Below, piece after piece: positions 8,583 to 61,286 of a stretch of 64,000 bases of DNA. Positions within the stretch are counted from its first letter, which is position 1. Every line of letters starts with the position of its first letter. Position numbers and translations under genes: made by a program. The notes beneath the pieces were generated by a model. It saw only the letters and a list, made by a program, of their open reading frames with translations, did not search any database and was not told the origin of the DNA. Source of the DNA: Nonlabens sp. (lineage in GTDB: Bacteria; Bacteroidota; Bacteroidia; Flavobacteriales; Flavobacteriaceae); NCBI RefSeq assembly GCF_039941875.1, contig NZ_JBDVDQ010000016.1:81916-145915 (forward strand), given 5' to 3'.

Positions 8583-10001
8583 ATGTCAAAACGAAGAAGA
8601 AGAGCTCAAAAGACCTTTGAAAATGTACCAGTAGTAGATGCAGGTGCAAGAGGTAAAAGTGTTGCAAAAACAGAAGATGGAGAAGTAATTTTCCTAACAG
8701 ACGCTGTCCCAGGAGATGTGGTAAACATCCAGACTTTTAAGAAAAAGAAATCTTTTTATGAAGGTCGTGTTACAGAATTTATTGAATTAAGTGACAGACG
8801 TGCGCAGCCTGTTTGTAAACACTTCAATACTTGTGGAGGTTGTAAATGGCAACACATGACTTATGAAAGTCAATTGTATTTTAAGCAAAAAGAAGTTGCA
8901 GAGAACCTGAGAAGAATAGGTCACCTAGACTTACCAGAAATGACTCCTATCGCAGGGTCCTCTGAGCAATACCACTATCGAAATAAGATGGAATTCAGCT
9001 TTTCTGCAAACCGATGGTTAACACTAGAAGAAATTCAAAGTGATGTAGAAATAGAAGATAAAAAAGCCCTAGGTTTTCATATTCCAGGAATGTGGGATAA
9101 GATTTTACACTTAGACGAGTGTCATCTACATCCTCAAATAGGAGAAGATATTAGATTGAGTGTGCACGCTTTCGCGAAAGCGGAAAACATATCCTACTTT
9201 AACCCAAGAGAAAAAACAGGAACATTAAGAACATTAATGTTACGTATGTCCTCTACTGGTGAGAACATGGTAGTGATTCAGTTTTTTCAAGATAACGAGG
9301 CACAAAGAATCGCTTTATTAGATCATTTAAAGGAAAACTTTCCACAAATAACGTCATTGCAGTACATTATAAATGAAAAAGCAAACGACACGATTTATGA
9401 TCAAGATGTAATATGCTATAATGGCCGCGATCATATTTTTGAAGAAATGGAAGGTTTGCAATTTAAAATTAATGCAAAATCTTTTTATCAGACTAATAGT
9501 AAACAGGCTTATGAACTGTATAAAATAACTAGAGATTTTGCAGGCTTATCTGGAGAAGAACTGGTTTATGACCTTTATACAGGAACAGGAACTATCGCGC
9601 AATTTGTTGCTAAAAAAGCAAAGCATGTCGTAGGAATAGAAGCTATACCTGTAGCTATAGAAGATGCTAAAACAAATGCTTTACACAACGGTATAGAAAA
9701 CACGACATTCTTTGCCGGTGATATGAAAGACGTATTTACTCAAGAATTTATTGACGAGCACGGACAGCCAGACATTATCATAACAGACCCACCTAGGGAC
9801 GGTATGCACAAAGATGTGGTAGCACAACTTATTAAATTAAGTGCACAACGCATAGTCTATGTAAGTTGTAACAGTGCAACACAAGCACGTGATCTTGCGT
9901 TGCTAGATGAGAAATACTCCATAGTAAAGGTACAACCAGTAGATATGTTCCCACAGACACATCACGTAGAAAACGTAGTTTTACTAGAACTTAAAGGCTA
10001 G
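8583..10001 (+). CDS. rlmD: 23S rRNA (uracil-1939-C5)-methyltransferase
   Basis: TRAM N-terminus, C..CGGC Fe-S motif, DLYTGTG, DPPRDG, YVSCN, DMFPQTHHVE. Confidence 0.9.
   Translation: MSKRRRRAQKTFENVPVVDAGARGKSVAKTEDGEVIFLTDAVPGDVVNIQTFKKKKSFYEGRVTEFIELSDRRAQPVCKHFNTCGGCKWQHMTYESQLYFKQKEVAENLRRIGHLDLPEMTPIAGSSEQYHYRNKMEFSFSANRWLTLEEIQSDVEIEDKKALGFHIPGMWDKILHLDECHLHPQIGEDIRLSVHAFAKAENISYFNPREKTGTLRTLMLRMSSTGENMVVIQFFQDNEAQRIALLDHLKENFPQITSLQYIINEKANDTIYDQDVICYNGRDHIFEEMEGLQFKINAKSFYQTNSKQAYELYKITRDFAGLSGEELVYDLYTGTGTIAQFVAKKAKHVVGIEAIPVAIEDAKTNALHNGIENTTFFAGDMKDVFTQEFIDEHGQPDIIITDPPRDGMHKDVVAQLIKLSAQRIVYVSCNSATQARDLALLDEKYSIVKVQPVDMFPQTHHVENVVLLELKG
9168..9181. repeat. Iterated palindrome copy 2 (in rlmD, AFAKA)
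   Basis: CGCTTTCGCGAAAGCG at 9167-9182. Confidence 0.9.
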
Positions 10002-33214: not shown

Positions 33215-35746
33215 ATGAAACAAACGATGTTGCTATTGTTGGTTCTCGCTTTCGCGAAAGCGTTACCAGCACAAACTATTGTAGATCCTACTCTAGATTA
33301 TTATTTACCACAAAATGTTTCTTATAATCCAGACATTCCTACACCACAAGAAATCATAGGTTATGTACCAGGAAAATGGCATGTATCTCATGATAAATTA
33401 GCTCAATACATGATGGTGCTGGCAGATAAATCTGACCGTTTTACTATTGAAAATCGTGGCAAAACCTATGAAGACCGACCTTTATACTTACTAACAGTAA
33501 CTAGTGTTGAGAATCAAAAAAACATAGAACAAATAAGAACAGACCATGTTGCTGCTACAGATAAAGATGCCGTGGACAACACAAACGCACCAATAGTCGT
33601 TTATCAAGGTTTTTCTATTCATGGAAACGAACCTAGTGGTTCTAACGCCTCTCTACTTCTAGCCTATCATCTAGCTGCTGCACAAGGTCCAGAAATAGAG
33701 GCACTTTTAAAAAACACCGTTATACTCCTAGATCCTAGTTTAAATCCTGATGGATTACAACGATTTGCTACTTGGGTTAATCAAAATAAAAGTGACAACG
33801 TAAATCCAGACACCTACGACAGAGAATACAATGAAACATGGCCTGGTGGACGTACTAATCATTACTGGTTTGATATGAATCGTGACTGGTTACCGGTTCA
33901 ATTACCAGAATCGCAAGCACGCATTGAGACTTTTCATAAATGGTTACCTAATATCTTAACAGATCATCATGAAATGGGAACTAACTCCACATTCTTTTTT
34001 CAGCCTGGAATACCGTCTAGAACACATCCTTTAACTCCTGCGATGAATCAAAAACTGACTCGTGAAATAGGAAATTACCTTGCCGAAGGTTTTGATAAAA
34101 TAGGATCGCTTTATTACACAGAAGAAGATTATGACGATTTCTACTACGGTAAGGGATCTACTTTTCCAGATATTAATGGTTCTATAGGTATTTTATTTGA
34201 GCAAGCCAGCTCTCGCGGTCATGCTCAAAACTCTGATAACGGAGTGCTAACCTTTCCATTTACCATAAGAAATCAATTCACAGCAGCTTTGAGCACCTTA
34301 AAAGCAGCAACTAATAAACGTAAAGAAATACTCGATTATCAAAATCAATTTTATAAAGATGCGAGGAAAGAAACTGGTAATGGTAATCTTAATTTCGATA
34401 ACGGCGACGCGATCATTTTTGGTGATTACACAGATGCTGGTCGCACCGATGCGCTCGCTGAGATTTTAAAAAGGCACAAAATTAAAATCGAACCATTACA
34501 TGCAGATAGAGTTATAGAAGGAAAAGCATTCAAACAAGGTTATGCTTATCGCGTTCCTAAAAATCAAAAGAATTCTAGACTAATAAAAGCCATGTTTGAA
34601 AAACGCACTAATTTTCAAGACAGCTTGTTCTATGATATTAGTGCCTGGACGTTTCCTTTGGCTTTTGATATGGATTATGTAGATGGTAAACATATTAAAA
34701 TGCAGGCACCTTCAGCTGGAGCAAATAGCCGAATTAATTTAATAAGTCTATCTTCATACGCGTATCTTTTAAAATGGAATGAATTTTACACTCCTAAAGC
34801 TTTAAATCTATTGCTATCTAAAGGAATAAGAGCCAAAGTAGCCATGAAACCTTTTAATGTAAATAATACTCAGTACGATTATGGGACCATCATGATACCT
34901 GCCGAAGGTCAAACCATGACATCTGAAGAAATGGTTTCCTTATTTAAGGAAATACAATCCAAAACAGAAATCACCTTTCATAATGTAAAAACAGGCCTCA
35001 CCGAAGGAATCGATTTAGGATCGCGTCAGTTTAGAGATATTAAACAACCTGAGATTGCAGTTCTTGTAGGTGAAGGTATCAACCCATCTGACGCTGGAGA
35101 GATCTGGCATTTAATGGATCAGCAATATGATATTCCTATTACAAAAATTGATCTAGCAGATATTAATCGTAAAGATTTATCTCGTTACAATACGATTATT
35201 GTCCCAACGACTTATGGCAGCCCAGAAAATGAGGTGATCGACCAATTAAAAACATGGACTCGCAATGGCGGTACTTTAATAGGTTATCGCAGTGCATTAA
35301 GATGGATGAGTAGTTCTAAATTGCTACCTCTTAAATTCAAAAAAACAGAAAACCCTGCAAACAATATCACCTTTGAGCAACGTCGTGATCACAGCGGTGC
35401 ACAACGTATAGGTGGAGCTATTTTTGAAACGAAATTAGACCGCTCTCACCCTATTGCTTTTGGTTTTAAAGACGACCAGTTGCCCATGTTTAGAAACACA
35501 ACTTTATTTGTAGAGCCACACAAAGACAGTTACCGCAACCCTATTAAGTATACGGACAACCCTTTAATGAGCGGCTATATTTCTGGTATAAATCTGGAGG
35601 CAGTAAAAAACACAGTACCGTTTCAGCATAATAATTATGGACGTGGTGACGTGATAGGTTTCACAGATAATACTCAGTTTAGAGCATTCTGGTACGGAAC
35701 AAATAAATTATTAATGAACGCTATTTTCTTTGCTGAGCAAATGTAA
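33215..35746 (+). CDS. M14-family zinc carboxypeptidase (secreted)
   Basis: Signal peptide; IHGNE, NPDG, DMNRD, DHHEM. Confidence 0.85.
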   Translation: MKQTMLLLLVLAFAKALPAQTIVDPTLDYYLPQNVSYNPDIPTPQEIIGYVPGKWHVSHDKLAQYMMVLADKSDRFTIENRGKTYEDRPLYLLTVTSVENQKNIEQIRTDHVAATDKDAVDNTNAPIVVYQGFSIHGNEPSGSNASLLLAYHLAAAQGPEIEALLKNTVILLDPSLNPDGLQRFATWVNQNKSDNVNPDTYDREYNETWPGGRTNHYWFDMNRDWLPVQLPESQARIETFHKWLPNILTDHHEMGTNSTFFFQPGIPSRTHPLTPAMNQKLTREIGNYLAEGFDKIGSLYYTEEDYDDFYYGKGSTFPDINGSIGILFEQASSRGHAQNSDNGVLTFPFTIRNQFTAALSTLKAATNKRKEILDYQNQFYKDARKETGNGNLNFDNGDAIIFGDYTDAGRTDALAEILKRHKIKIEPLHADRVIEGKAFKQGYAYRVPKNQKNSRLIKAMFEKRTNFQDSLFYDISAWTFPLAFDMDYVDGKHIKMQAPSAGANSRINLISLSSYAYLLKWNEFYTPKALNLLLSKGIRAKVAMKPFNVNNTQYDYGTIMIPAEGQTMTSEEMVSLFKEIQSKTEITFHNVKTGLTEGIDLGSRQFRDIKQPEIAVLVGEGINPSDAGEIWHLMDQQYDIPITKIDLADINRKDLSRYNTIIVPTTYGSPENEVIDQLKTWTRNGGTLIGYRSALRWMSSSKLLPLKFKKTENPANNITFEQRRDHSGAQRIGGAIFETKLDRSHPIAFGFKDDQLPMFRNTTLFVEPHKDSYRNPIKYTDNPLMSGYISGINLEAVKNTVPFQHNNYGRGDVIGFTDNTQFRAFWYGTNKLLMNAIFFAEQM
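33248..33261. repeat. Iterated palindrome copy 7 (in M14 signal peptide, AFAKA)
   Basis: CGCTTTCGCGAAAGCG at 33247-33262. Confidence 0.9.
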
Positions 35747-36572: not shown

Positions 36573-36586
36573 GCTTTCGCGAAAGC
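36573..36586. repeat. Iterated palindrome copy 8 (intergenic, divergent promoter region)
   Basis: CGCTTTCGCGAAAGCG at 36572-36587. Confidence 0.9.
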
Positions 36587-36629: not shown

Positions 36630-37184
36630 ATGTCCTTAACCCCATCTACCATGCTACCGTTAGGAACAACGGCACCAGATTTTACCCTACTAGACACCGT
36701 AAGTGGTGACATGATCCACTTGCAAGATCAAAAAGGAGCAAGGGGTACGGTGGTTATGTTTATATGCAATCACTGTCCGTTTGTAATTCATGTAAATGAA
36801 GAACTGGTAAGAATAGCAAATGATTATAGGGTTACAGGTTTTAACTTTATCGCGATCTCTAGTAATGATGTCGTTAACTATCCACAAGATGGGCCAGATC
36901 GCATGAATCAACATGCTGATGAGAACGACTACCCATTTCCTTATTTATATGATGAAACGCAAGAAGTAGCGAGAGCATATAACGCCGCGTGTACACCAGA
37001 TTTTTATTTATTTGACGACCGATTAAAGTTAGTATATCGAGGCCAGCTAGACGACTCTAGACCTGGAAACGGAATACCACTTACCGGCAGATCATTACGT
37101 GAATCAATGGACGCACTTTTGGGTAATAAAAAAGTTCCAGAGCCACAAAAACCAAGTATAGGTTGCAATATCAAGTGGAAATAA
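36630..37184 (+). CDS. Thioredoxin/AhpC-TSA family protein
   Basis: FICNHCPFV, YNAACTPDF, SIGCNIKWK. Confidence 0.85.
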   Translation: MSLTPSTMLPLGTTAPDFTLLDTVSGDMIHLQDQKGARGTVVMFICNHCPFVIHVNEELVRIANDYRVTGFNFIAISSNDVVNYPQDGPDRMNQHADENDYPFPYLYDETQEVARAYNAACTPDFYLFDDRLKLVYRGQLDDSRPGNGIPLTGRSLRESMDALLGNKKVPEPQKPSIGCNIKWK

Positions 37185-37252: not shown

Positions 37253-38203
37253 ATGTTCTCACTTAAAGTGATCTGGAATCCGTTAGAAGGGCTTGATTTA
37301 GGCTTTTTTACATTGCATTTTTATAGCCTTTCTTATGTTATCGCATTTGTCTTAGGATGGTACATTATCAAACCTATCTTTAAAAGAGATGGTGTGAGTG
37401 TAGAAAAACTAGATCCGCTATTTATGTACACGGTAATAGGCTGTCTACTAGGTGCACGATTAGGCCACTATTTATTTTATGAGCCATCTACCTTTTTCTC
37501 AGACCCATTGAGAGTATTCTTACCATTTGAGACATCTCCATTTAAATGGACCGGTTTTGCAGGTATGGCGAGTCATGGAGCAGCTATAGGTATTATTATC
37601 GCTATGTTCTTTTACAGCCGCAAGCATTTAAAGAAAAACATGTTATGGATACTGGACCGTATCGTGGTACCTACAGCTATAGGAGGTACTTTTGTACGTT
37701 TAGGTAACCTTATGAATAGTGAGATAAATGGAAAGCCTAGCGGCGACTTTTTTGCTGGTTTCAAATTTGTACGCGACACGAGTGATGATAATGTGAGAGC
37801 TGCATTACAGCAAACTAAAATATTAGATACCGATAAGGCTATTGACGCACTGGTAAACAACCCTCAATATGCAGATGCATTAGAAGCTATACCTTACAAA
37901 CACCCTGCACAGCTGTATGAAGCAATTTGTTATGTAGGCGTTTTTATAATTCTTTACCTAGTCTACTGGAAAACAGATAAGCGCAATAAACTAGGGTATA
38001 TCTTAGGGTTATTCTTTGTATTACTATTTACAGTAAGACTACTTATTGAAACGGTAAAAGAACCACAAACAGATACCGATGCTTTTGAACTTATAGGCAT
38101 GCACTTTAATACTGGTCAGCTTTTAAGTGTTCCATTTATTCTATTGGGTCTATTTCTTATGTTCCGACCAGATGGTATGTTTGAAAAGAAAAGTGATGCG
38201 TAA
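37253..38203 (+). CDS. lgt: Prolipoprotein diacylglyceryl transferase
   Basis: GARLGH, GMASHGA, RLGNLMNSEING, HPAQLYE. Confidence 0.92.
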   Translation: MFSLKVIWNPLEGLDLGFFTLHFYSLSYVIAFVLGWYIIKPIFKRDGVSVEKLDPLFMYTVIGCLLGARLGHYLFYEPSTFFSDPLRVFLPFETSPFKWTGFAGMASHGAAIGIIIAMFFYSRKHLKKNMLWILDRIVVPTAIGGTFVRLGNLMNSEINGKPSGDFFAGFKFVRDTSDDNVRAALQQTKILDTDKAIDALVNNPQYADALEAIPYKHPAQLYEAICYVGVFIILYLVYWKTDKRNKLGYILGLFFVLLFTVRLLIETVKEPQTDTDAFELIGMHFNTGQLLSVPFILLGLFLMFRPDGMFEKKSDA

Positions 38204-38678
38204 ACTGTTTTTAAGCACATTAATCTTAACCTGTCTCTTGCACAGTTGCAAACCTGATCAAGAGGCAGAAATGAGAGCTCGTGACTGGTCTTTTAAGAAC
38301 GAGGCACAAGCAGTGCTTATTAATAAAGAAAATGACACTCTACAGCAATTAAAGCTAGAACTAGCCGATACTGATTACACCATACAACTAGGTATGATGT
38401 ATAGAGAACAGCTTACTGAAGATCAAGGAATGCTTTTTGTTTTTAGTGATGCTAGACCGCGATTTTTCTATATGAAAAACACAGACGTACCTCTAGACAT
38501 TATCTACATAACTGCAGATAATCGCATAGACAGTTACCATACTAACGCCGTACCTAAAGACGAGACTTTATTAAAAAGTAAAGGTGACGCACAATACGTA
38601 CTCGAGGTAAAAGCGGGCATGGTGGAGAAATGGAGCCTTAAAGAAGGAGATCTTTTCAAGTGGCAAGAAATCAATTAA
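38196..38678 (+). CDS. DUF192-family lipoprotein
   Basis: Lipobox LHS-C; GMMYR, GMLFVF, FYMKNT-x2-PLDII, YVLEV-x-AG; start moved to MRKLF. Confidence 0.85.
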   Translation: MRKLFLSTLILTCLLHSCKPDQEAEMRARDWSFKNEAQAVLINKENDTLQQLKLELADTDYTIQLGMMYREQLTEDQGMLFVFSDARPRFFYMKNTDVPLDIIYITADNRIDSYHTNAVPKDETLLKSKGDAQYVLEVKAGMVEKWSLKEGDLFKWQEIN

Positions 38679-38696
38679 AACTTTTCATTATCATAT

Positions 38697-38732
38697 AAAA
38701 AAATGCCTCTCCAATTGAGAGGCATTTTTTTT
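38697..38732. terminator. Terminator hairpin AAATGCCTCTC-CAATT-GAGAGGCATTT (left island flank)
   Basis: 11-bp stem with A/T tails after DUF192 gene. Confidence 0.8.
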
Positions 38733-38751
38733 GAGTTTGATGTTGTTAAGG

Positions 38752-38775
38752 GTTTCGCTTTCGCGAAAGAGAAAC
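38752..38775. repeat. Iterated palindrome copy 9 (13/14 match, left island flank)
   Basis: GTTTC-G-CTTTCGCGAAAG-A-GAAAC. Confidence 0.8.
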
Positions 38776-38901
38776 ACAAATAAAGAATAATTACTACTTA
38801 TACAAAACCTCTTCTTAACAACTGAAATCTGTCTTAGGATTGTGTGTTCTAAAAACATTCCTCTTAATATTATATACACTACAAATGTTATATTGAACAA
38901 A

Positions 38902-38931
38902 TGCGCATTACAAACGCGCGCGACGTGGAGG
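38902..38931 (+). repeat. GC-rich REP-like hairpin at 3' end of immunity gene 3
   Basis: TGCGCATTACAAACGCGCGCGACGTGGAGG in very AT-rich context. Confidence 0.5.
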
Positions 38932-38936
38932 ATTCT

Positions 38937-39491
38937 TCAATATTCCATTTCAATGCGGTTTATTAACAAGTCATTGACAATCTTAACTTCTGGATGAAGC
39001 TCAATTTTAAAAATTGTTACATCTTTAAAGTACTTTTCCTCTATTGAATTATAATAGCTTCTTTCTACCGGTAATAAAACAGGACTGTACTCCTTGTTAT
39101 GCATCAAATTTAATGTATGATAATTTAACCATTTATCTATAGGCTCATGAATTATGAAATAACTTTTTTCAAAAGATTTCATTGAAATGGGATCTAATTC
39201 ATTAAAATAATTATCAGAAATAATTATGTCATTAAACTTAATCTTCATTTTATTAATAATAATGGTATCATTTAGGTTAAAAACATCTCTAGGTACAAAG
39301 CGAATAGGTCCATTTAACGATACTGAATTAGGAAACTCAAAAAAAGTCTTAATAGTTAAATGATCTTTTGGTTTGATGTTTAATCTACTAATAACTTCTT
39401 CATATACAGCATTTTTATCATTCTCTTGAGTATTACCTTTTTTAAAACAAAATAACAATACAATAAAAATGAAAAATTTTATTTTAATCAT
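38937..39491 (-). CDS. Exported hypothetical protein, candidate immunity protein (cassette 3)
   Basis: Signal peptide; ATGA 4-nt overlap with upstream toxin tip. Confidence 0.6.
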   Translation of the reverse strand: MIKIKFFIFIVLLFCFKKGNTQENDKNAVYEEVISRLNIKPKDHLTIKTFFEFPNSVSLNGPIRFVPRDVFNLNDTIIINKMKIKFNDIIISDNYFNELDPISMKSFEKSYFIIHEPIDKWLNYHTLNLMHNKEYSPVLLPVERSYYNSIEEKYFKDVTIFKIELHPEVKIVNDLLINRIEMEY

Positions 39492-40036
39492 AACTTTTTA
39501 TTAATTTTTGAAATTGCTTCACTTGGTCTAAATGCTGAAGGATTATCAGTACCCTTATTAAAATGAAGAAAACCTGATCTATAATCTGAACGATGCGGCA
39601 GTTCCATTTCACCTCTAAAAATATTTATTAAATCAACTGTATCTCCAGTTTGTCGTCCATTTACTGAACTTGGATCTCTCAAACCTCCAACAGCATGTCC
39701 AATAAATTCATGCTCTACTAATCTTCCAAGATTAAACATTCTTTTTGAAAAATTTCCAGTCTCTGAAACCCAACTTCCTAATGCATTTTGTCCATCAAAA
39801 TCAGCTAAATCAACGTAGGCTGTTTTAGTTTCCATATTAGTTGAACCGTACCCTATAGGATTACTAACGTTAACGGTCTGACCTGCAACTGTGACAGAAC
39901 TATCTTCTGATCCAATATTATAGCCAAATACTAATTTCCCTTCAGAAGTACTTCCATTCTTTAATTCCCCTGCTGGCGCTCGTGCTAGTTTGCAACTAGT
40001 ACCGTACAGAGTGAAGACATAAATATAATAAATCAT
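39488..40036 (-). pseudogene. Orphan toxin C-terminal fragment with HExxGH metallopeptidase-like motif
   Basis: VEHEFIGHA; first ~24 codons come from the direct repeat. Confidence 0.5.
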
Positions 40037-40123
40037 AGAAATCTTTAGACCTCAAAGGTTTCTTATTTTCTTTTAAAAATTATTCTATTTTATTCAAACT
40101 CGGTATTCCCTAGAAACGAGTAC
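39965..40123. repeat. Direct repeat copy A (~160 bp)
   Basis: 29/30 identity at 39969-39998 vs 42260-42289 and 51/52 at 40017-40068 vs 42315-42366. Confidence 0.9.
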
Positions 40124-40160
40124 GAGCGTTTGCGCAGTAAATCTATAATTAATTTCATAA

Positions 40161-40190
40161 AAAAGGAAAGTTGTTTCTAACTTTCCTTTT
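40161..40190. terminator. Terminator hairpin after JAB-toxin immunity gene
   Basis: AAAAGGAAAGTT-GTTTCT-AACTTTCCTTTT. Confidence 0.75.
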
Positions 40191-40206
40191 CCATGATTGT
40201 GCATAT

Positions 40207-40246
40207 CACGAGCGAGACGCTTGCGCCAGTTGGCCAACTAGGGAGG
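40207..40246 (+). repeat. GC-rich REP-like hairpin at 3' end of immunity gene 2
   Basis: CACGAGCG-AGA-CGCTTGCG-CCAG...GGGAGG, ending 2 nt from the stop codon. Confidence 0.55.
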
Positions 40247-40248
40247 TT

Positions 40249-40737
40249 TTAATCGCATTTTCTAATCTGAGAATCGACTAAATGGTAACAATTTTGAGTA
40301 TCCTTTTTAATAAGCCAGGCAGAAATATCTCTAAAAGAAATAACAGATTTACCTACGTAATTACTCAAATCTATATTAAAATCAGTTTTAAATAATAAAT
40401 CGTTTTGTTTATTGATTACTACAAATACAACATTATTGTTAATGACGGTTGAAAGTATGGCTTTTTCCTGATAATTATTCAATTCCATCAGATTAGCAAT
40501 TTTACCTTGAGTGACTAAAATGTAATCATTTTCCTTAAAATCAACATACCAATTAAACTTGTTTTTATTGTTTTGACAGGTATCCTTTTTACCAATAATG
40601 TTCTCCAATTCTTTTATCAATTGTTCGTTCTTAAAAAAAACTAGATTCGAGTGTGTTGTTGAATTTTCCTTTTGAGCATAACAGAATAAAGTACAGAAGA
40701 AAATTAATACAAATATTTTGAAATTGAATGATCTCAT
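40249..40737 (-). CDS. Exported hypothetical protein, candidate immunity to JAB toxin
   Basis: Sec signal (…FCYA-Q); ATGA overlap with toxin stop. Confidence 0.65.
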   Translation of the reverse strand: MRSFNFKIFVLIFFCTLFCYAQKENSTTHSNLVFFKNEQLIKELENIIGKKDTCQNNKNKFNWYVDFKENDYILVTQGKIANLMELNNYQEKAILSTVINNNVVFVVINKQNDLLFKTDFNIDLSNYVGKSVISFRDISAWLIKKDTQNCYHLVDSQIRKCD

Positions 40738-41654
40738 AATTTAAGTTTTTTTTGTGCTGGAGCATCTATTATTATGGTATTTAATTCAAAACTTACTGAG
40801 TTCTTATCAAAGTCCTTATACTCATTTATAAACGGAGAATATATTTCAAATCTAGGTTTGAAACCTAGTCTTTTTTCGAAGATTCCTGCCGAAGAAATAT
40901 CCAATGGTGATGGGGCTAAAAAAGGATCAGGATGAGAATGTACATGATGTAATAATATTTTATGCCTTTTGGATAAAATATTTATGCTATACTCTGCATT
41001 TGATTCAAAAGATGTGCTGATATATTTAATATCTGAAAACCAATTTGAATAAGAGTGTTCACTGTCCGAATTATCTGTAATAAATTCAAACAAAGCTTTG
41101 TTATCTTTTACTTTAGTAGTTTCTATATTTTGTATTTCCCTAATTGTTCCCTCATCATCAATATGTGTTGTATTTTCAATTTTATCTAAAACACCTTTCT
41201 CAACATTTATTGAATTTCCTGTTTCTTTACCTTCATAATCTAAAGCAATAAGTTTATCATGCTTATCATTTGTAGCCCTAATAAATGCAATTTTACCATT
41301 ATCATCTATACCATAATCATCTTGTACTACTTCAGGAGCCATCCCAGTAGGATCGGTATACATCACAGGATTATTAAACGCATAAGCATACGACGACCAT
41401 TCAGGCATTTTTTCCGCCAGTGGATCAACACTCATCCATATACTTAAACTAGGGTCATAATAACGTGCTCCATAATAATACATACCGGTCTCGCTGTCCA
41501 GTTCTTTACCGTTAAATTTGAACTCGGTCTGGTAATATGATATTGAGGTTTGCTCTGCCATGGTCTCTCCAAAGGGTAAGTTAAGAAAAAACTGGTACAT
41601 ATTACCGTTTACGTCTGTTAACGCATTTGTGGTACCTAAATGGTAAATAGGTTT
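40734..41654 (-). pseudogene. Headless Rhs-core fragment with C-terminal JAB/JAMM (Tox-JAB1-like) toxin domain
   Basis: In-frame upstream of the ATG at 41600: HLGTTNALTDVNGN; then PFGE, FNGKELDSETGMYYYGARYYDP, NNPVMYTDPTG, HSHP-x6-S-x2-D. Confidence 0.85.
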
Positions 41655-42119
41655 TTAAAAGCTACAACTGCTAATTTGGTTTTTTAGGAAGTTTATTTCC
41701 TTTGATTCATCTTTTACTATTGTAAAATTGAACCATGTATCATCCTCGCCTTGATAATAGTCTATTTGATCTGACTTGTACTGCTTTGAATAGACTATTG
41801 AAGCTTCTGGAACACCACTCGAAAAAGCTTTCATAGGCAACGCAACTATACGTTTACCCTTACTAACAAAAGATATAGACTCAGAATTTAAGTTCTTAAA
41901 CCTATCCTCATCTTCTTTTGTTTTCAGCTTCACATAAAGCATAGTCTCATCGCGGCATATTTGATCAATTTCAAAAATTATTTCATCCTGATTCGTAGAA
42001 ACAGTAAGTTTTAATGAGCTATTTTCGAATGACTGACAAGAGACAATACTAACGCTTATAGTTATGATATTTAGGCTCAAGATTAACGCTCGTACCGAAC
42101 ATATTCGTTGTAGTACCAT
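41655..42119 (-). CDS. Hypothetical lipoprotein, candidate immunity protein (cassette 1)
   Basis: Hydrophobic stretch ending IVS-C; overlaps upstream short ORF; start uncertain. Confidence 0.55.
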   Translation of the reverse strand: MVLQRICSVRALILSLNIITISVSIVSCQSFENSSLKLTVSTNQDEIIFEIDQICRDETMLYVKLKTKEDEDRFKNLNSESISFVSKGKRIVALPMKAFSSGVPEASIVYSKQYKSDQIDYYQGEDDTWFNFTIVKDESKEINFLKNQISSCSF

Positions 42120-42318
42120 ATAATTTAGTTATTTCAGATAAAGTAAAAACTTGGGGTTTTACATATATACCATTTTTTGAATATAAATAAGTAATTCCAT
42201 CTTGACTTCTTCCGTAAAACACAGCGGAATTGGTATTTCCAAATATCACATTCGTTTCTCCTGCTGGCGCTTGTGCTAGTTTGCAACTACTACCATTACC
42301 GTACAGAGTTATAAACAT
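42049..42318 (-). pseudogene. Short orphan toxin-tip-like fragment fused to repeat-encoded peptide
   Basis: First ~21 codons come from direct repeat B; position parallels cassette 3. Confidence 0.35.
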
Positions 42319-42419
42319 AAATATAATAAATCATAGAAATCTTTAGACTTCAAAGGTTTCTTATTTATTTTTAAATTATTCTTATCTACTCCAACTATGT
42401 ACTCGATAGAAACGAGCAC
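42256..42419. repeat. Direct repeat copy B (~160 bp)
   Basis: See copy A. Confidence 0.9.
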
Positions 42420-42512
42420 CAGAGGTTTTGTAAACTTGCGATAGTAGTTTTATTGATTAATTAAAAGATTCTTAATTGTCAAAGAGAACAACGCCTAAAA
42501 CGAATAGAAAAT

Positions 42513-42544
42513 AAAAAATGCCTCTCCATTACAGAGAGGCATTT
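42513..42544. terminator. Terminator hairpin AAATGCCTCTC-CATTACA-GAGAGGCATTT (right island flank)
   Basis: Same 11-bp stem as 38701-38727. Confidence 0.8.
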
Positions 42545-42571
42545 GTATTTAAGATTTTTAGTACTTGTTCC

Positions 42572-42585
42572 GCTTTCGCGAAAGC
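42572..42585. repeat. Iterated palindrome copy 10 (right island flank)
   Basis: CGCTTTCGCGAAAGCG at 42571-42586. Confidence 0.9.
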
Positions 42586-42602
42586 GATACTAGTATCTAT
42601 AT

Positions 42603-44981
42603 TTAATAGTTGATATACATCCAGCTTGCAATATCTTCAGCCTCTGCATCATTAAACTTAATTACATAGAAGTAAGTCCCTACTGGAAGTAATCCATCGC
42701 CAGAGGCTACTCCTGAATTAGGAATACCTGCAAACTCTACATAGTTGTTTGCTCTAGTTTCATAAACGACAGAACCTAATCTATTGAATACTTTCATTTC
42801 AAAGTTAGGAAACTGATCTAGTCCAGGAATAGAGAACGTATCATTAATACCATCATTGTTAGGAGAGAAACCTTCTGGAACTTCTACCTCACAAGTCATA
42901 ACTATTAGAGTAAATGAACCTGTTGTAAAACAAGATGGATCTTGTACGTTAGATACTCTCACATAAATAATTTCTCCCATAGACTGATAAGAGTCTGGAG
43001 TAGAAATACTATTTGTATTTGCGTCTGCATCTGCTTGAGAAAGGAAGTAAGCTACATCAAATTCTGCTGCTGATTGTGCTCCTAGAATGATAGCGTCTTG
43101 TGCTGTAAGATCAAATAACTCTAGACCGTTAATAGCACCATCTACATCATCACAAGCTTCTATATCTGCTACTGCATTAAACACAGCAGATGAATAAACG
43201 ATATCCAATTCTTCCACCACATAACAACCAGAAGCAAGATCTTGTACTCTAATAAACACGGTTTCATTTGCGCTTACATCATAAACACCTGGAGATACAA
43301 TAGCATTTGTAGCAGCGTCTGCATCTAATTGTGTAGGGTAAACATCTATTGAAAACAAAGTTGTGTCTAGTCCATTAAGTGTTTGTGTATATCTAGAGGT
43401 TAAATCTATCGTAGCAGAACCAGTATTTTGACATACTATAATATCATTAGGTTGTGCAGTAGCTATTTCTGACGACACTTCTATACATACCGTTTCTGTG
43501 TAAGTACAACCGAAGCTATCTGTAAATATATAATCGTAACAATTTTGCCCAGCAACAGTAGGTGTTACTGTGATAACGTTACCGTTTGTTGCAGTAATAT
43601 CTGCATTTGCTCCCCATACTTGAGAAACTTCCCCAGGAGTATATCTTTCTGCATCAGGCACAATTAATGGGTTAAAATTGATACCCCATTCAAAAATATA
43701 ACCATTATCACTAGATAAATTATCTACAATTCTAAGGCACCATAATCCATTAAGAGATGTTCCTGCAAATGTAGAGAAAGGATCTTCTGCAAGATAATCT
43801 CCTGCAGGTAGTGTAGTGACTGCTCCCGAAGCTTGAAAAAGAGTTTGTGTAGCACTAGGCGCCTCAGTAAAATTATAAACAAATCCTACTCCAGGAGTTA
43901 AATCGGTATCTACATCGATAGGTACACCTAAAAATGTATTTCCACCACCACCGGTTTTTACATCAATTACTGCACCGTTAGGAGCCGTTAAAGTAATATC
44001 TAAATCTCCTAAATAACTATGTTCCATATTAATAAAGAAGCCTAATAAATCTGCCGCACTGTTAAGTGTTGCTCCAGGAGCAAACCCACTTACATCTATA
44101 CAAGTTTCATAAAATGTAGTACCACTATCATCTGGTAAAAATGTAACACCTGAAACTGGAGGTGCAACTTGTGATGCAAATTCAGTTGCTACCACCATTC
44201 CCGTGATATCTGTAGATTCTCCAAAACAGATAGTAGTATCTGCTGCTGCAGTTCCAGTAAAGTCTGGTGTAGTTGATACTTGTATAACAATATCTTCTAA
44301 TGATCTATCTCGACAACCGTCTGGTGCAGTAGCGACGAAGTCTATTCTATAAACACCTGGATCGTTAAAAGTCTGTTGTAAAGTAGTTCCTACTGCCTCT
44401 GTACCGTCAGGAAGTCTGAATTTATATGTTGCTCCAGCAGAATCATTTGAAAATGTAGCTGAACCAGTGAAGTCTACTACTTCTCCTTGACACAATCTAA
44501 GTATACCGTCTGCATCAATAGCAGGTACAGTAACTATATCAGTTGTAATAGTTTGACACGTATCAAAACATTCTACCGCAGCTTGCCATCCAGTAGATGT
44601 ACCTGATCCATTAGAAATAAAAGTAAAAGTTAAACACCCTGAGGTATTTGTAGCACTTGCTAGAAGAGTTCCTGGAGATGTTGTCCCCTGAAAAACACCT
44701 AAAAAAGGAGCTGTATTACTATCTCCATCATAAGCAAGAAGAATATCACCGAACTGTGTGTCAAAAGAATTGAAAGTTACTCGCATAGCATCTGTTTCAA
44801 AAGGAGAACAGAAAGTAATCGTAAAACTTTCACTAACAGCATAATCACCTGTGACACCACCTGAATCTGTAAAGCTACCTGAACAAGTAACAAACTCACC
44901 GTCGGTCATAGGAAAGTCTTGTGCGGTTGAGAAGGCTGTAAAAAATAATATGCCTATACAACTAAGAATAAAGTTTTTCAT
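42603..44981 (-). CDS. T9SS type B (gliding-motility-associated CTD) surface protein with CUB-like, PKD-like and proprotein-convertase P-like domains
   Basis: Signal peptide; GSFTDSGG-x3-DY; GDLDITLTAPNG...LNGLWCLRIVDN; PEGFSPNNDGINDTF...VFNRLG...GTYFY. Confidence 0.8.
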   Translation of the reverse strand: MKNFILSCIGILFFTAFSTAQDFPMTDGEFVTCSGSFTDSGGVTGDYAVSESFTITFCSPFETDAMRVTFNSFDTQFGDILLAYDGDSNTAPFLGVFQGTTSPGTLLASATNTSGCLTFTFISNGSGTSTGWQAAVECFDTCQTITTDIVTVPAIDADGILRLCQGEVVDFTGSATFSNDSAGATYKFRLPDGTEAVGTTLQQTFNDPGVYRIDFVATAPDGCRDRSLEDIVIQVSTTPDFTGTAAADTTICFGESTDITGMVVATEFASQVAPPVSGVTFLPDDSGTTFYETCIDVSGFAPGATLNSAADLLGFFINMEHSYLGDLDITLTAPNGAVIDVKTGGGGNTFLGVPIDVDTDLTPGVGFVYNFTEAPSATQTLFQASGAVTTLPAGDYLAEDPFSTFAGTSLNGLWCLRIVDNLSSDNGYIFEWGINFNPLIVPDAERYTPGEVSQVWGANADITATNGNVITVTPTVAGQNCYDYIFTDSFGCTYTETVCIEVSSEIATAQPNDIIVCQNTGSATIDLTSRYTQTLNGLDTTLFSIDVYPTQLDADAATNAIVSPGVYDVSANETVFIRVQDLASGCYVVEELDIVYSSAVFNAVADIEACDDVDGAINGLELFDLTAQDAIILGAQSAAEFDVAYFLSQADADANTNSISTPDSYQSMGEIIYVRVSNVQDPSCFTTGSFTLIVMTCEVEVPEGFSPNNDGINDTFSIPGLDQFPNFEMKVFNRLGSVVYETRANNYVEFAGIPNSGVASGDGLLPVGTYFYVIKFNDAEAEDIASWMYINY

Positions 44982-60873: not shown

Positions 60874-61286
60874 AACTAACTCCTTTTCACCTCGCGATTC
60901 CAGTTAAAGAAATCACCACCACACGTGCGTTTTATCGCGATACATTAGGCTGTAAAGAAGGACGTAGTTCAGACCATTGGGTAGACTTTGATTTTTTTGG
61001 TCATCAACTGGTTATACATGTGACAGAAGAGGCTCAAAAAGCAGCCATTAATGCCGTAGATGGCAAGGCCGTTCCTGTTCCACATTTTGGTGTCGTTCTA
61101 GAATGGGATATTTTTCACGCTTTCGCGAAAGCGGTAAAAGAAAAAGGCATCCAGTTTATAATTGAGCCGTACATAAGATTTGAAGGACTACCAGGCGAGC
61201 AAGCCACGATGTTCTTTCAAGACCCAAGCGGAAATTCACTAGAGTTTAAGTCCTTTAAAGACTTTGATCAAATATTTGCATCATGA
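60870..61286 (+). CDS. VOC/glyoxalase-family protein
   Basis: PFHLAIPV, DFFGHQLVIH, VPHFGVVL, DPSGNSLEFK. Confidence 0.88.
   Translation: MKLTPFHLAIPVKEITTTRAFYRDTLGCKEGRSSDHWVDFDFFGHQLVIHVTEEAQKAAINAVDGKAVPVPHFGVVLEWDIFHAFAKAVKEKGIQFIIEPYIRFEGLPGEQATMFFQDPSGNSLEFKSFKDFDQIFAS
61119..61132. repeat. Iterated palindrome copy 13 (in VOC gene, AFAKA)
   Basis: CGCTTTCGCGAAAGCG at 61118-61133. Confidence 0.9.

Follow-up and report, generated by a model that had tools for sequence, protein, structure and literature searches.

The locus and its two hairpin-palindrome units

We analysed a 64,000-nt window of a Nonlabens genome (G000), i.e., a part of contig C16 of an assembly of 3.17 Mb with 34.5% GC. 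Within the window, a block of about 3.8 kb lies between a DUF192 gene and the gene of a type IX secretion system (T9SS) substrate. The block is bracketed by a left (L) and a right (R) unit, each composed of a terminator-like hairpin and a short palindrome, and it carries an array of toxin- and immunity-like open reading frames (ORFs). An earlier note on this DNA took the two units for attL/attR-like direct repeats formed when a toxin island entered. From the comparison with related genomes we consider it likely that the left unit is an old, clade-specific copy of a resident terminator, situated beside a genus-wide hotspot for toxin/immunity cassettes, and that the two units do not form an att pair. 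It is almost certain that both hairpins descend from a single ancestral terminator. The units and their neighbouring genes are as follows (window positions; a missing strand means that none is assigned):

37253-38203: lgt, upstream of the DUF192 gene (PF01790, E = 1e-54)
38127-38678, + strand: DUF192 gene, left flank (PF02643, E = 8.5e-29); syntenic in 24 Nonlabens genomes
38697-38732: L hairpin, A7-TGCCTCTC, loop CAATT, GAGAGGCA-T8; bidirectional terminator-like, RNAfold -19.4 kcal/mol; 22 nt past the DUF192 stop; extra, clade-specific copy
38752-38775: L palindrome GTTTCGCTTTCGCGAAAGAGAAAC, 24 nt with one mismatch, core 38757-38769; member of a family of 672 copies
42513-42544, - strand: R hairpin, A6-TGCCTCTC, loop CATTACA, GAGAGGCATTT; T-run on the minus strand only, RNAfold -16.3 kcal/mol
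42571-42586: R palindrome CGCTTTCGCGAAAGCG, 17 nt before the stop of the T9SS gene
42603-44981, - strand: T9SS-substrate gene, right flank; CUB/PKD/P-domain and a CHU_C type-B C-terminal domain (PF13585, E = 1e-22)

By sequence inspection, AAATGCCTCTC..GAGAGGCATTT starts at 38701 and 42516. The respective hairpin cores are AAATGCCTCTC-CAATT-GAGAGGCATTT (L, 38701-38727) and AAATGCCTCTC-CATTACA-GAGAGGCATTT (R, 42516-42544), and the palindrome core GCTTTCGCGAAAG starts at 38757 and 42572, i.e., 56 nt after the hairpin start in both units, which confirms the coordinates of the earlier note. The left core, GCTTTCGCGAAAGA, agrees with the full 14-mer in 13/14 positions (the last base is A), the right one in 14/14. 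Both units share identical arms of 16 nt and 11 nt (AAAAAATGCCTCTCCA and GAGAGGCATTT), and a repeat search extends the identity to the A-tract and the first two loop bases. Sequence and folding of both units show the GC-rich stem-loop with T-run of a Rho-independent terminator; R was detected on the minus strand by the terminator scan; it is the terminator of the T9SS-substrate gene and, by its position, the orthologue of the single hairpin found in all relatives.

The stem was said to be unique within the window, and this holds for the whole genome: the pattern GCCTCTC-N3-12-GAGAGGC has exactly two matches in 3.17 Mb, namely L and R. That is, only 2/421 terminator-like perfect hairpins carry this stem, and these two are neighbours 3.8 kb apart.

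With regard to the equal spacing, the 56 nt are the sum of unequal parts (L vs. R: loops of 5 vs. 7 nt, spacers of 29 vs. 27 nt). Since the single orthologous units of relatives span 55, 55, 56, 56 and 58 nt from hairpin to palindrome, the exact equality means no more than rough homology. Local alignments against shuffled sequences reveal no L/R homology outside the hairpin (z = -0.3 for the spacers, 0.8 upstream and -0.2 downstream), such that the units have only the hairpin arms and a generic palindrome in common. The latter is weak evidence of common descent, because 13 copies occur in the window and 672 in the genome. Given the same alignments, we rejected a duplication that takes in the 3' end of the T9SS gene. 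An Rfam search returned sub-threshold, attenuator-like matches only (Phe_leader with 35 and 24 bits, gathering score 55), which we regard as meaningless.

The locus in relatives and the toxin/immunity array

We compared the locus with other Nonlabens genomes, the closest of which, N. xylanidelens DSM 16809 (G007), is 95-96% identical over the left flank. Throughout the genus a hairpin follows the T9SS-substrate gene at its 3' end; most relatives have the identical stem, and G002 and G006 have a variant of it. Since G005, G009, G010, G014, G016, G017, G020, G046, G002, G006 and two metagenome contigs have their single hairpin at this gene end, R is the unit that resides there as terminator of the T9SS-substrate gene; its stem is conserved across Nonlabens. 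A palindrome orthologous to that of R is present in G010, G014, G016, G017, G046, G002 and G006, and absent from G005, G009 and G020. Across species, the hairpin arms AAAATGCCTCTC/GAGAGGCATTTT are identical or differ by at most one base (L031, L032, L033, L035, L063 and L065), with flanks that are about 75% identical and loops and spacers that vary freely. Judged from these sequences, the conservation of the arms appears stronger than a terminator stem needs.

The relatives differ in what lies between the DUF192 gene and this terminator. The layout that the earlier note proposed as ancestral, i.e., DUF192 and T9SS genes convergent around a single hairpin and palindrome, is found in G010 (DUF192, 15 nt, hairpin, palindrome variant, T9SS stop). 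G005 has a similarly empty site with the hairpin only (DUF192, 67 nt, hairpin, T9SS stop), and G009 and G020 also carry just the hairpin. About 300 nt of non-coding DNA precede the single unit in G014 and one metagenome contig. G016 and a TARA contig have a 149-aa immunity-like ORF, placed between direct repeats of a toxin-head remnant and followed by the single unit. In G006, one cassette with an Rhs C-terminal toxin (Rhs-CT) and its immunity ORF directly abut the single unit, and G002 carries a 7.7-kb array of three Rhs-CT cassettes with a single unit on the T9SS side. Thus, the DUF192-to-terminator space is a genus-wide hotspot for orphan polymorphic-toxin C-termini and immunity genes, whose cargo comes with two head types (Rhs-core type and 'SCKLAxAPAGE'-head type). 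It is independent of the duplication, because the cargo of G002, G006, G016 and the TARA contig lies between DUF192 and a single unit.

The G002 array (L192) is additionally bracketed by two direct copies (1525-1637 and 9023-9136, 81% identical) of a 113-nt element that resembles a miniature inverted-repeat transposable element. It has inverted ends CTGTCATGCTGA...TTCAGAATGACAG, is unrelated to the hairpin unit and is absent from the G000 window.

Two units are present only in G000, G007 and G024, i.e., in the N. xylanidelens clade. The G007 island (5.7 kb) holds different cassettes but has a 162-aa immunity gene (97.7% identity), Rhs core ends (88-94%) and heads in common with G000. In G024 both units persist, somewhat decayed, and are separated by a gene-free stretch of about 330 nt, which aligns to the tail of the G000 array (38776 to about 38909) and to its head (from about 42340). 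An empty site that retains both units, which the earlier note had itself named as evidence against its proposal, is therefore at hand. Since all three genomes have two units and G024 has only array head and tail, the duplication predates the present cargo. Inward from the left palindrome, the cargo of G000 and G007 starts to differ after about 150 nt; inward from the right hairpin, it does so after 100-260 nt. According to the alignments of the three loci, the cargo breakpoints thus lie within conserved head and tail sequences and not at hairpins or palindromes.

A scan of metagenomes for the hairpin yielded more than 120 contigs, mostly unrelated, and only three of them combine hairpin and palindrome. 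Two of these (L134 and L136) show a single unit at the DUF192/T9SS locus; the third (L157, 1.7 kb) is too short to be placed.

The array in G000 comprises six ORFs, all on the minus strand, and has a GC content of 30.6% vs. about 36% in its flanks. Its features are (all on the minus strand where a strand is given):

38776-38936, - strand: array tail, i.e., its 3' untranslated end; the alignment of G000, G007 and G024 shows conservation as far as about 38909
38903-38925: cassette-tail motif TTACAAACGCGCGCGACGTGGA, within the array tail
38937-39491, - strand: 184-aa ORF with signal peptide in immunity position; no family match, putative function from position only
39488-40036, - strand: 182-aa orphan toxin-like ORF with conserved head LYGTSCKLARAPAGE and a HEFIGH metallopeptidase-like motif
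39965-40131, - strand: copy A of the cassette-head repeat; identity to copy B 73-95% (repeat families D1-D3 and D6; BLAST)
40155-40196, - strand: internal terminator-like hairpin between cassettes
40205-40230: apparent toxin-head junction remnant CACGAGCGAGACGCTTGCGCCAG, beyond the internal hairpin; GC-rich, CACGAGCGAGACGCT(C/T)GCGCCAG
40249-40737, - strand: 162-aa ORF in immunity position, common to the N. xylanidelens island (97.7% DNA identity)
40734-41600, - strand: 288-aa orphan Rhs C-terminal toxin with Rhs-associated core end (YYGARYYDP..DPLAE) and JAB-like toxin domain
41655-42119, - strand: 154-aa lipoprotein-like ORF, immunity-like by position; no family match
42049-42318, - strand: toxin head of 89 aa (LYGNGSSCKLAQAPAGE), truncated and lacking a toxin domain; second copy of the 39488-40036 head
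42256-42427, - strand: cassette-head repeat copy B; the array head consists of this copy and 42428-42515 and is conserved in G000, G007 and G024 (alignment)

The 288-aa ORF matches TIGR03696 in residues 9-87 (E = 4e-24, 84.8 bits, cut-off 32.5) and Toxin-JAB1 (PF15659) in residues 160-232 (23.2 bits, cut-off 21). Its stop is overlapped by 4 nt by the 162-aa ORF, a putative immunity gene. The whole genome (99.98% completeness) contains no match to the RHS repeat (PF05593) and only two Rhs-core matches, both in short ORFs; the array cassettes are thus orphans without a parental gene. The second Rhs-core ORF (C23:108556-110122) has 355 aa and is followed by a 165-aa ORF, with a further toxin-head remnant at about 110340-110400. 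A search across the genus for a parent of the 'SCKLAxAPAGE' head gave one match, a 419-aa ORF in G005, which is uninformative.

The cassette-tail motif, (A)ACG..TTACAAACGCGCGCGACGTGGA, occurs once here, three times in the G007 island (L036 8862, 10527 and 10697) and as a variant in G002 (L192 about 1735-1765), i.e., arrays of three species have it behind immunity genes. A 3' element of the cassettes and a site of recombination are both conceivable roles. The GC-rich CACGAGCGAGACGCT(C/T)GCGCCAG also forms the direct repeat around the 149-aa ORF of G016 (L032 about 1972-1998 and about 2862-2888); its sequence suggests a remnant of the junction at the toxin head (..GCGCCAGC(A/T)GG).

Recombination has acted at the locus, as shown by the mosaic divergence of the T9SS-substrate protein from its G007 counterpart (L029 3893-6553), with about 97% identity in residues 1-480 and about 65% in residues 481-694. 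The G007 protein contains one additional repeat (about 94 aa). Next to it, a 1021-aa membrane protein shows 98% identity between the two genomes.

Origin of the second unit

Our favoured explanation is an old copy of the resident terminator next to the cassette hotspot. The left copy would have arisen once, in the common ancestor of G000, G007 and G024, either by local duplication or when an 'empty' allele (DUF192-hairpin-palindrome) and one with the array recombined on one side only. As the likeness is now limited to the arms, which are under selection, this event would be old or would have involved a diverged allele. R, with its T-run on the minus strand only, would keep transcripts of the T9SS gene from running on into the array, and L (A7 and T8) would terminate both the DUF192 gene and the far end of the array. 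The silent, AT-rich array would thereby be insulated on both sides. Turnover of the cargo would proceed via homologous recombination at conserved cassette heads, tails and Rhs core ends, and not site-specifically at hairpin or palindrome. Substrates of this kind are available, i.e., the head repeats of about 170 nt, the Rhs core ends with 88-94% identity to G007, and the immunity gene that is 97.7% identical within otherwise different arrays.

Some observations weigh against this explanation. L and R show no detectable likeness beyond hairpin arms and palindrome, which excludes a simple recent duplication, such that an old event has to be assumed. Furthermore, the loop length (5 nt) and the spacer of L are closer to the outgroup units than those of R, while the right flank is outgroup-like in R. 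Such a loop and spacer of L would fit the reverse history, with R arriving in foreign DNA. The empty state of G024 could be a secondary deletion rather than a sign of a cargo-independent duplication. Finally, the terminator and insulator roles are predicted from sequence and folding only.

The least improbable alternative builds on the attL/attR-like proposal of the earlier note: an element that carried its own copy of the hairpin (and palindrome) integrated site-specifically at the DUF192/T9SS terminator, thereby duplicated the site, and later lost its integrase. The identical 16-nt and 11-nt arms at both ends, the single-unit empty sites of G010 and G005 and the low GC content of the island (30.6%) agree with such an attL/attR pair, and loops and spacers that differ between identical arms are what one expects for an attP copy from another lineage. 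On the other hand, no integrase is found in the islands of G000, G007 and G024 or nearby; all ORFs of the islands in G000 and G007 resemble toxin or immunity genes, and the nearest of the four tyrosine recombinase matches (PF00589) in the genome is 47 kb away from the array, none being within it. G024 keeps both units without cargo, the arrays of G002, G006 and G016 have cargo with one unit only, and the breakpoints between G000 and G007 cargo are inside the island and not at the repeats. We thus regard site-specific entry as unlikely; that is, the proposed duplication of the hairpin stands, but not its origin as attL/attR on island entry.

Still less probable, in our assessment, is that the paired, genus-conserved hairpins enclose a 'landing pad' (array head and tail, empty in G024) at which a host-encoded or unlinked recombinase exchanges cassettes via the tail motif or the hairpin. 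If true, marine Flavobacteriia would here possess a cassette platform similar to an integron, but with no integrase linked to it.

The iterated palindrome and comparison with known systems

The palindrome within both units belongs to a large family. GCTTTCGCGAAAGC has 672 copies in the genome, compared with about 0.003 expected from composition, and 13 in the window (2916, 9168, 14507, 19519, 24761, 29510, 33248, 36573, 38757, 42572, 49168, 54385 and 61119). The palindrome has a length of 14-16 nt, with the form (C)GCTTTCGCGAAAGC(G), and the family was found in 39/39 Nonlabens genomes searched. More than half of the copies (381/672) are within crude ORFs, e.g., those at 61119 and 9168 and the one at 33248, which is part of a signal peptide (..LAFAKAL..); 170 of the 302 copies deep inside genes are read in the AFAK frame. 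About 16% of the intergenic regions contain a copy, with little preference among convergent, tandem and divergent gene pairs, and the flanks of intergenic copies are partly symmetric. The copies are about 4.6 kb apart (median 4.1 kb) and evenly spaced, i.e., the coefficient of variation (CV) is 0.605 vs. 0.985 ± 0.037 for random positions, and gaps below 1 kb make up 0.9% vs. 19% expected.

In the G024 locus (L030), two palindromes about 370 nt apart (2243-2255 and 2600-2615) have both decayed by CG-to-CA/TG transitions (GCTTTCGCAAAAG; CGTTTTCACAAAAGCG), with the other copies of the locus intact. Their decay agrees with the genome at large, in which copies close to each other are almost missing. 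Another copy, upstream of the AhpC/redoxin gene at 36630 (palindrome at 36573-36586), is kept in position in nearly all members of the genus, with flanks that are merely 70-77% identical; in the loci of the relatives (L001-L020) it was read at about 820-860 or about 3600.

Since 38 copies are located within 75 nt of a terminator-like hairpin, compared with 13.4 ± 3.6 for random positions, 'terminator plus palindrome' is a recurrent arrangement in this genome. The palindromes of L and R appear to be two ordinary members of the 672-copy family with no special part in the history of the locus. We also considered the left palindrome as a hybrid half-site, i.e., a recombination junction, and rejected this, because its 24 nt form a full palindrome apart from one point change.

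This bears on the suggestion of the earlier note that the palindrome is an integration or recombination landmark; islands would then come and go by recombination between its copies. A copy does lie near both borders here and at the T9SS-side border in G002, G006, G014 and G016, and identical copies of 14-16 nt every 4.6 kb could act as microhomology. We nevertheless find this role highly improbable, given a family that is evenly spaced (CV 0.60 vs. 0.99), mostly within ORFs and present in about 16% of the intergenic regions, and an L palindrome that is not a half-site. In addition, the orphan toxin locus on C23 has no pair of hairpin and palindrome at its borders, the palindrome is missing at the left array borders of G002, G006 and G016, and conserved array head and tail stand between the cargo and both palindromes of our locus. 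Hardly more credible is a coincidence in which two unrelated terminators converged on one stem, each beside an independently placed palindrome: the same hairpin in more than 120 mostly unrelated metagenome contigs shows that the stem is reachable by convergence, terminator-palindrome pairs are common (about 38) and the L/R spacers are not homologous, but only 2/421 hairpins have the stem, these are neighbours 3.8 kb apart with identity up to the A-tract and the first two loop bases, and the stem is the one conserved at this very locus across the genus.

An old copy of the resident terminator thus remains our preferred account of the left unit, and it carries a caution: a neat direct-repeat pair around a toxin island can mislead, because the repeats outlive the cargo and sister lineages have cargo without the pair. 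With its empty, scaffold-only, one-cassette and two- or three-cassette states, the locus provides a natural series for the turnover of orphan toxin/immunity cassettes in marine Flavobacteriia without a parental rhs gene. Overall we consider the locus moderately ordinary. The palindrome (evenly spaced, genic as well as intergenic and genus-wide) is the more unusual object and merits its own study; it is not tied to islands.

With regard to known repeats, HIP1 of cyanobacteria is a highly iterated palindrome of 8 nt that is found in genes and between them. The Nonlabens palindrome resembles it in its huge over-representation and in its genic and intergenic placement, and the partly symmetric flanks of its intergenic copies recall repetitive extragenic palindromic (REP) elements. 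Its length of 14-16 nt sets it apart from HIP1, and its even spacing and its occurrence in a flavobacterial genus are further differences. REP elements are recognised by extragenic location together with a REP-associated tyrosine transposase (RAYT), which does not apply here: the whole-genome search for such a transposase gave one good match, a 95-aa fragment of Y1 (IS200/RAYT) type at C16:207821-208048. In its behaviour the palindrome is closer to a HIP-type or architectural site than to REP. We found no mention of its sequence in the literature searched.

Islands that tyrosine integrases insert at gene 3' ends likewise show direct repeats that are imperfect but have one core in common at either end, and relatives with a single copy at the site. 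The Nonlabens island differs in that it has no integrase, its repeats outlast the cargo (G024), and cargo occurs without the repeat pair (G002, G006, G016). That is, the rule of one copy when empty and two when occupied fails: one copy goes with the empty sites of G010 and G005, but two go with that of G024, and G002, G006 and G016 have cargo beside one copy.

The acquired interbacterial defence cluster rAID-1 of Bacteroidales, which is defined by a XerD-like tyrosine recombinase at its 5' end (bioRxiv 10.1101/471110), is also a co-directional, low-GC array in Bacteroidota with immunity-like genes, toxin remnants and a repeated intergenic motif, for which the cassette tail TTACAAACGCGCGCGACGTGGA (once in G000, three times in G007) may be the counterpart here. 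In contrast to rAID-1, the Nonlabens array has no XerD-like recombinase, is small (6 ORFs) and keeps intact-looking toxin C-termini.

The closest agreement in organisation is with the orphan Rhs/CdiA C-terminal toxin/immunity arrays, as described for orphan rhs of Salmonella (PMC3967940) and Rhs of Serratia (PMC10539506). In both, a cassette starts with the conserved Rhs core end (TIGR03696), continues with a variable toxin domain and a small downstream ORF, and lacks the N-terminal shell; short homology blocks are shared, and cassettes differ between close relatives. The Nonlabens array differs in that the assembly has no full-length rhs gene anywhere (0 RHS repeats at 99.98% completeness), in that it mixes in a second, non-Rhs head type, and in its place downstream of a T9SS-substrate gene, behind the terminator of that gene. 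In the 288-aa ORF, the Rhs core directly precedes the variable C-terminal domain with no YD-repeat shell upstream, which is what marks an orphan Rhs-CT. The Nonlabens island is thus an orphan polymorphic-toxin/immunity array, i.e., a known kind of system.

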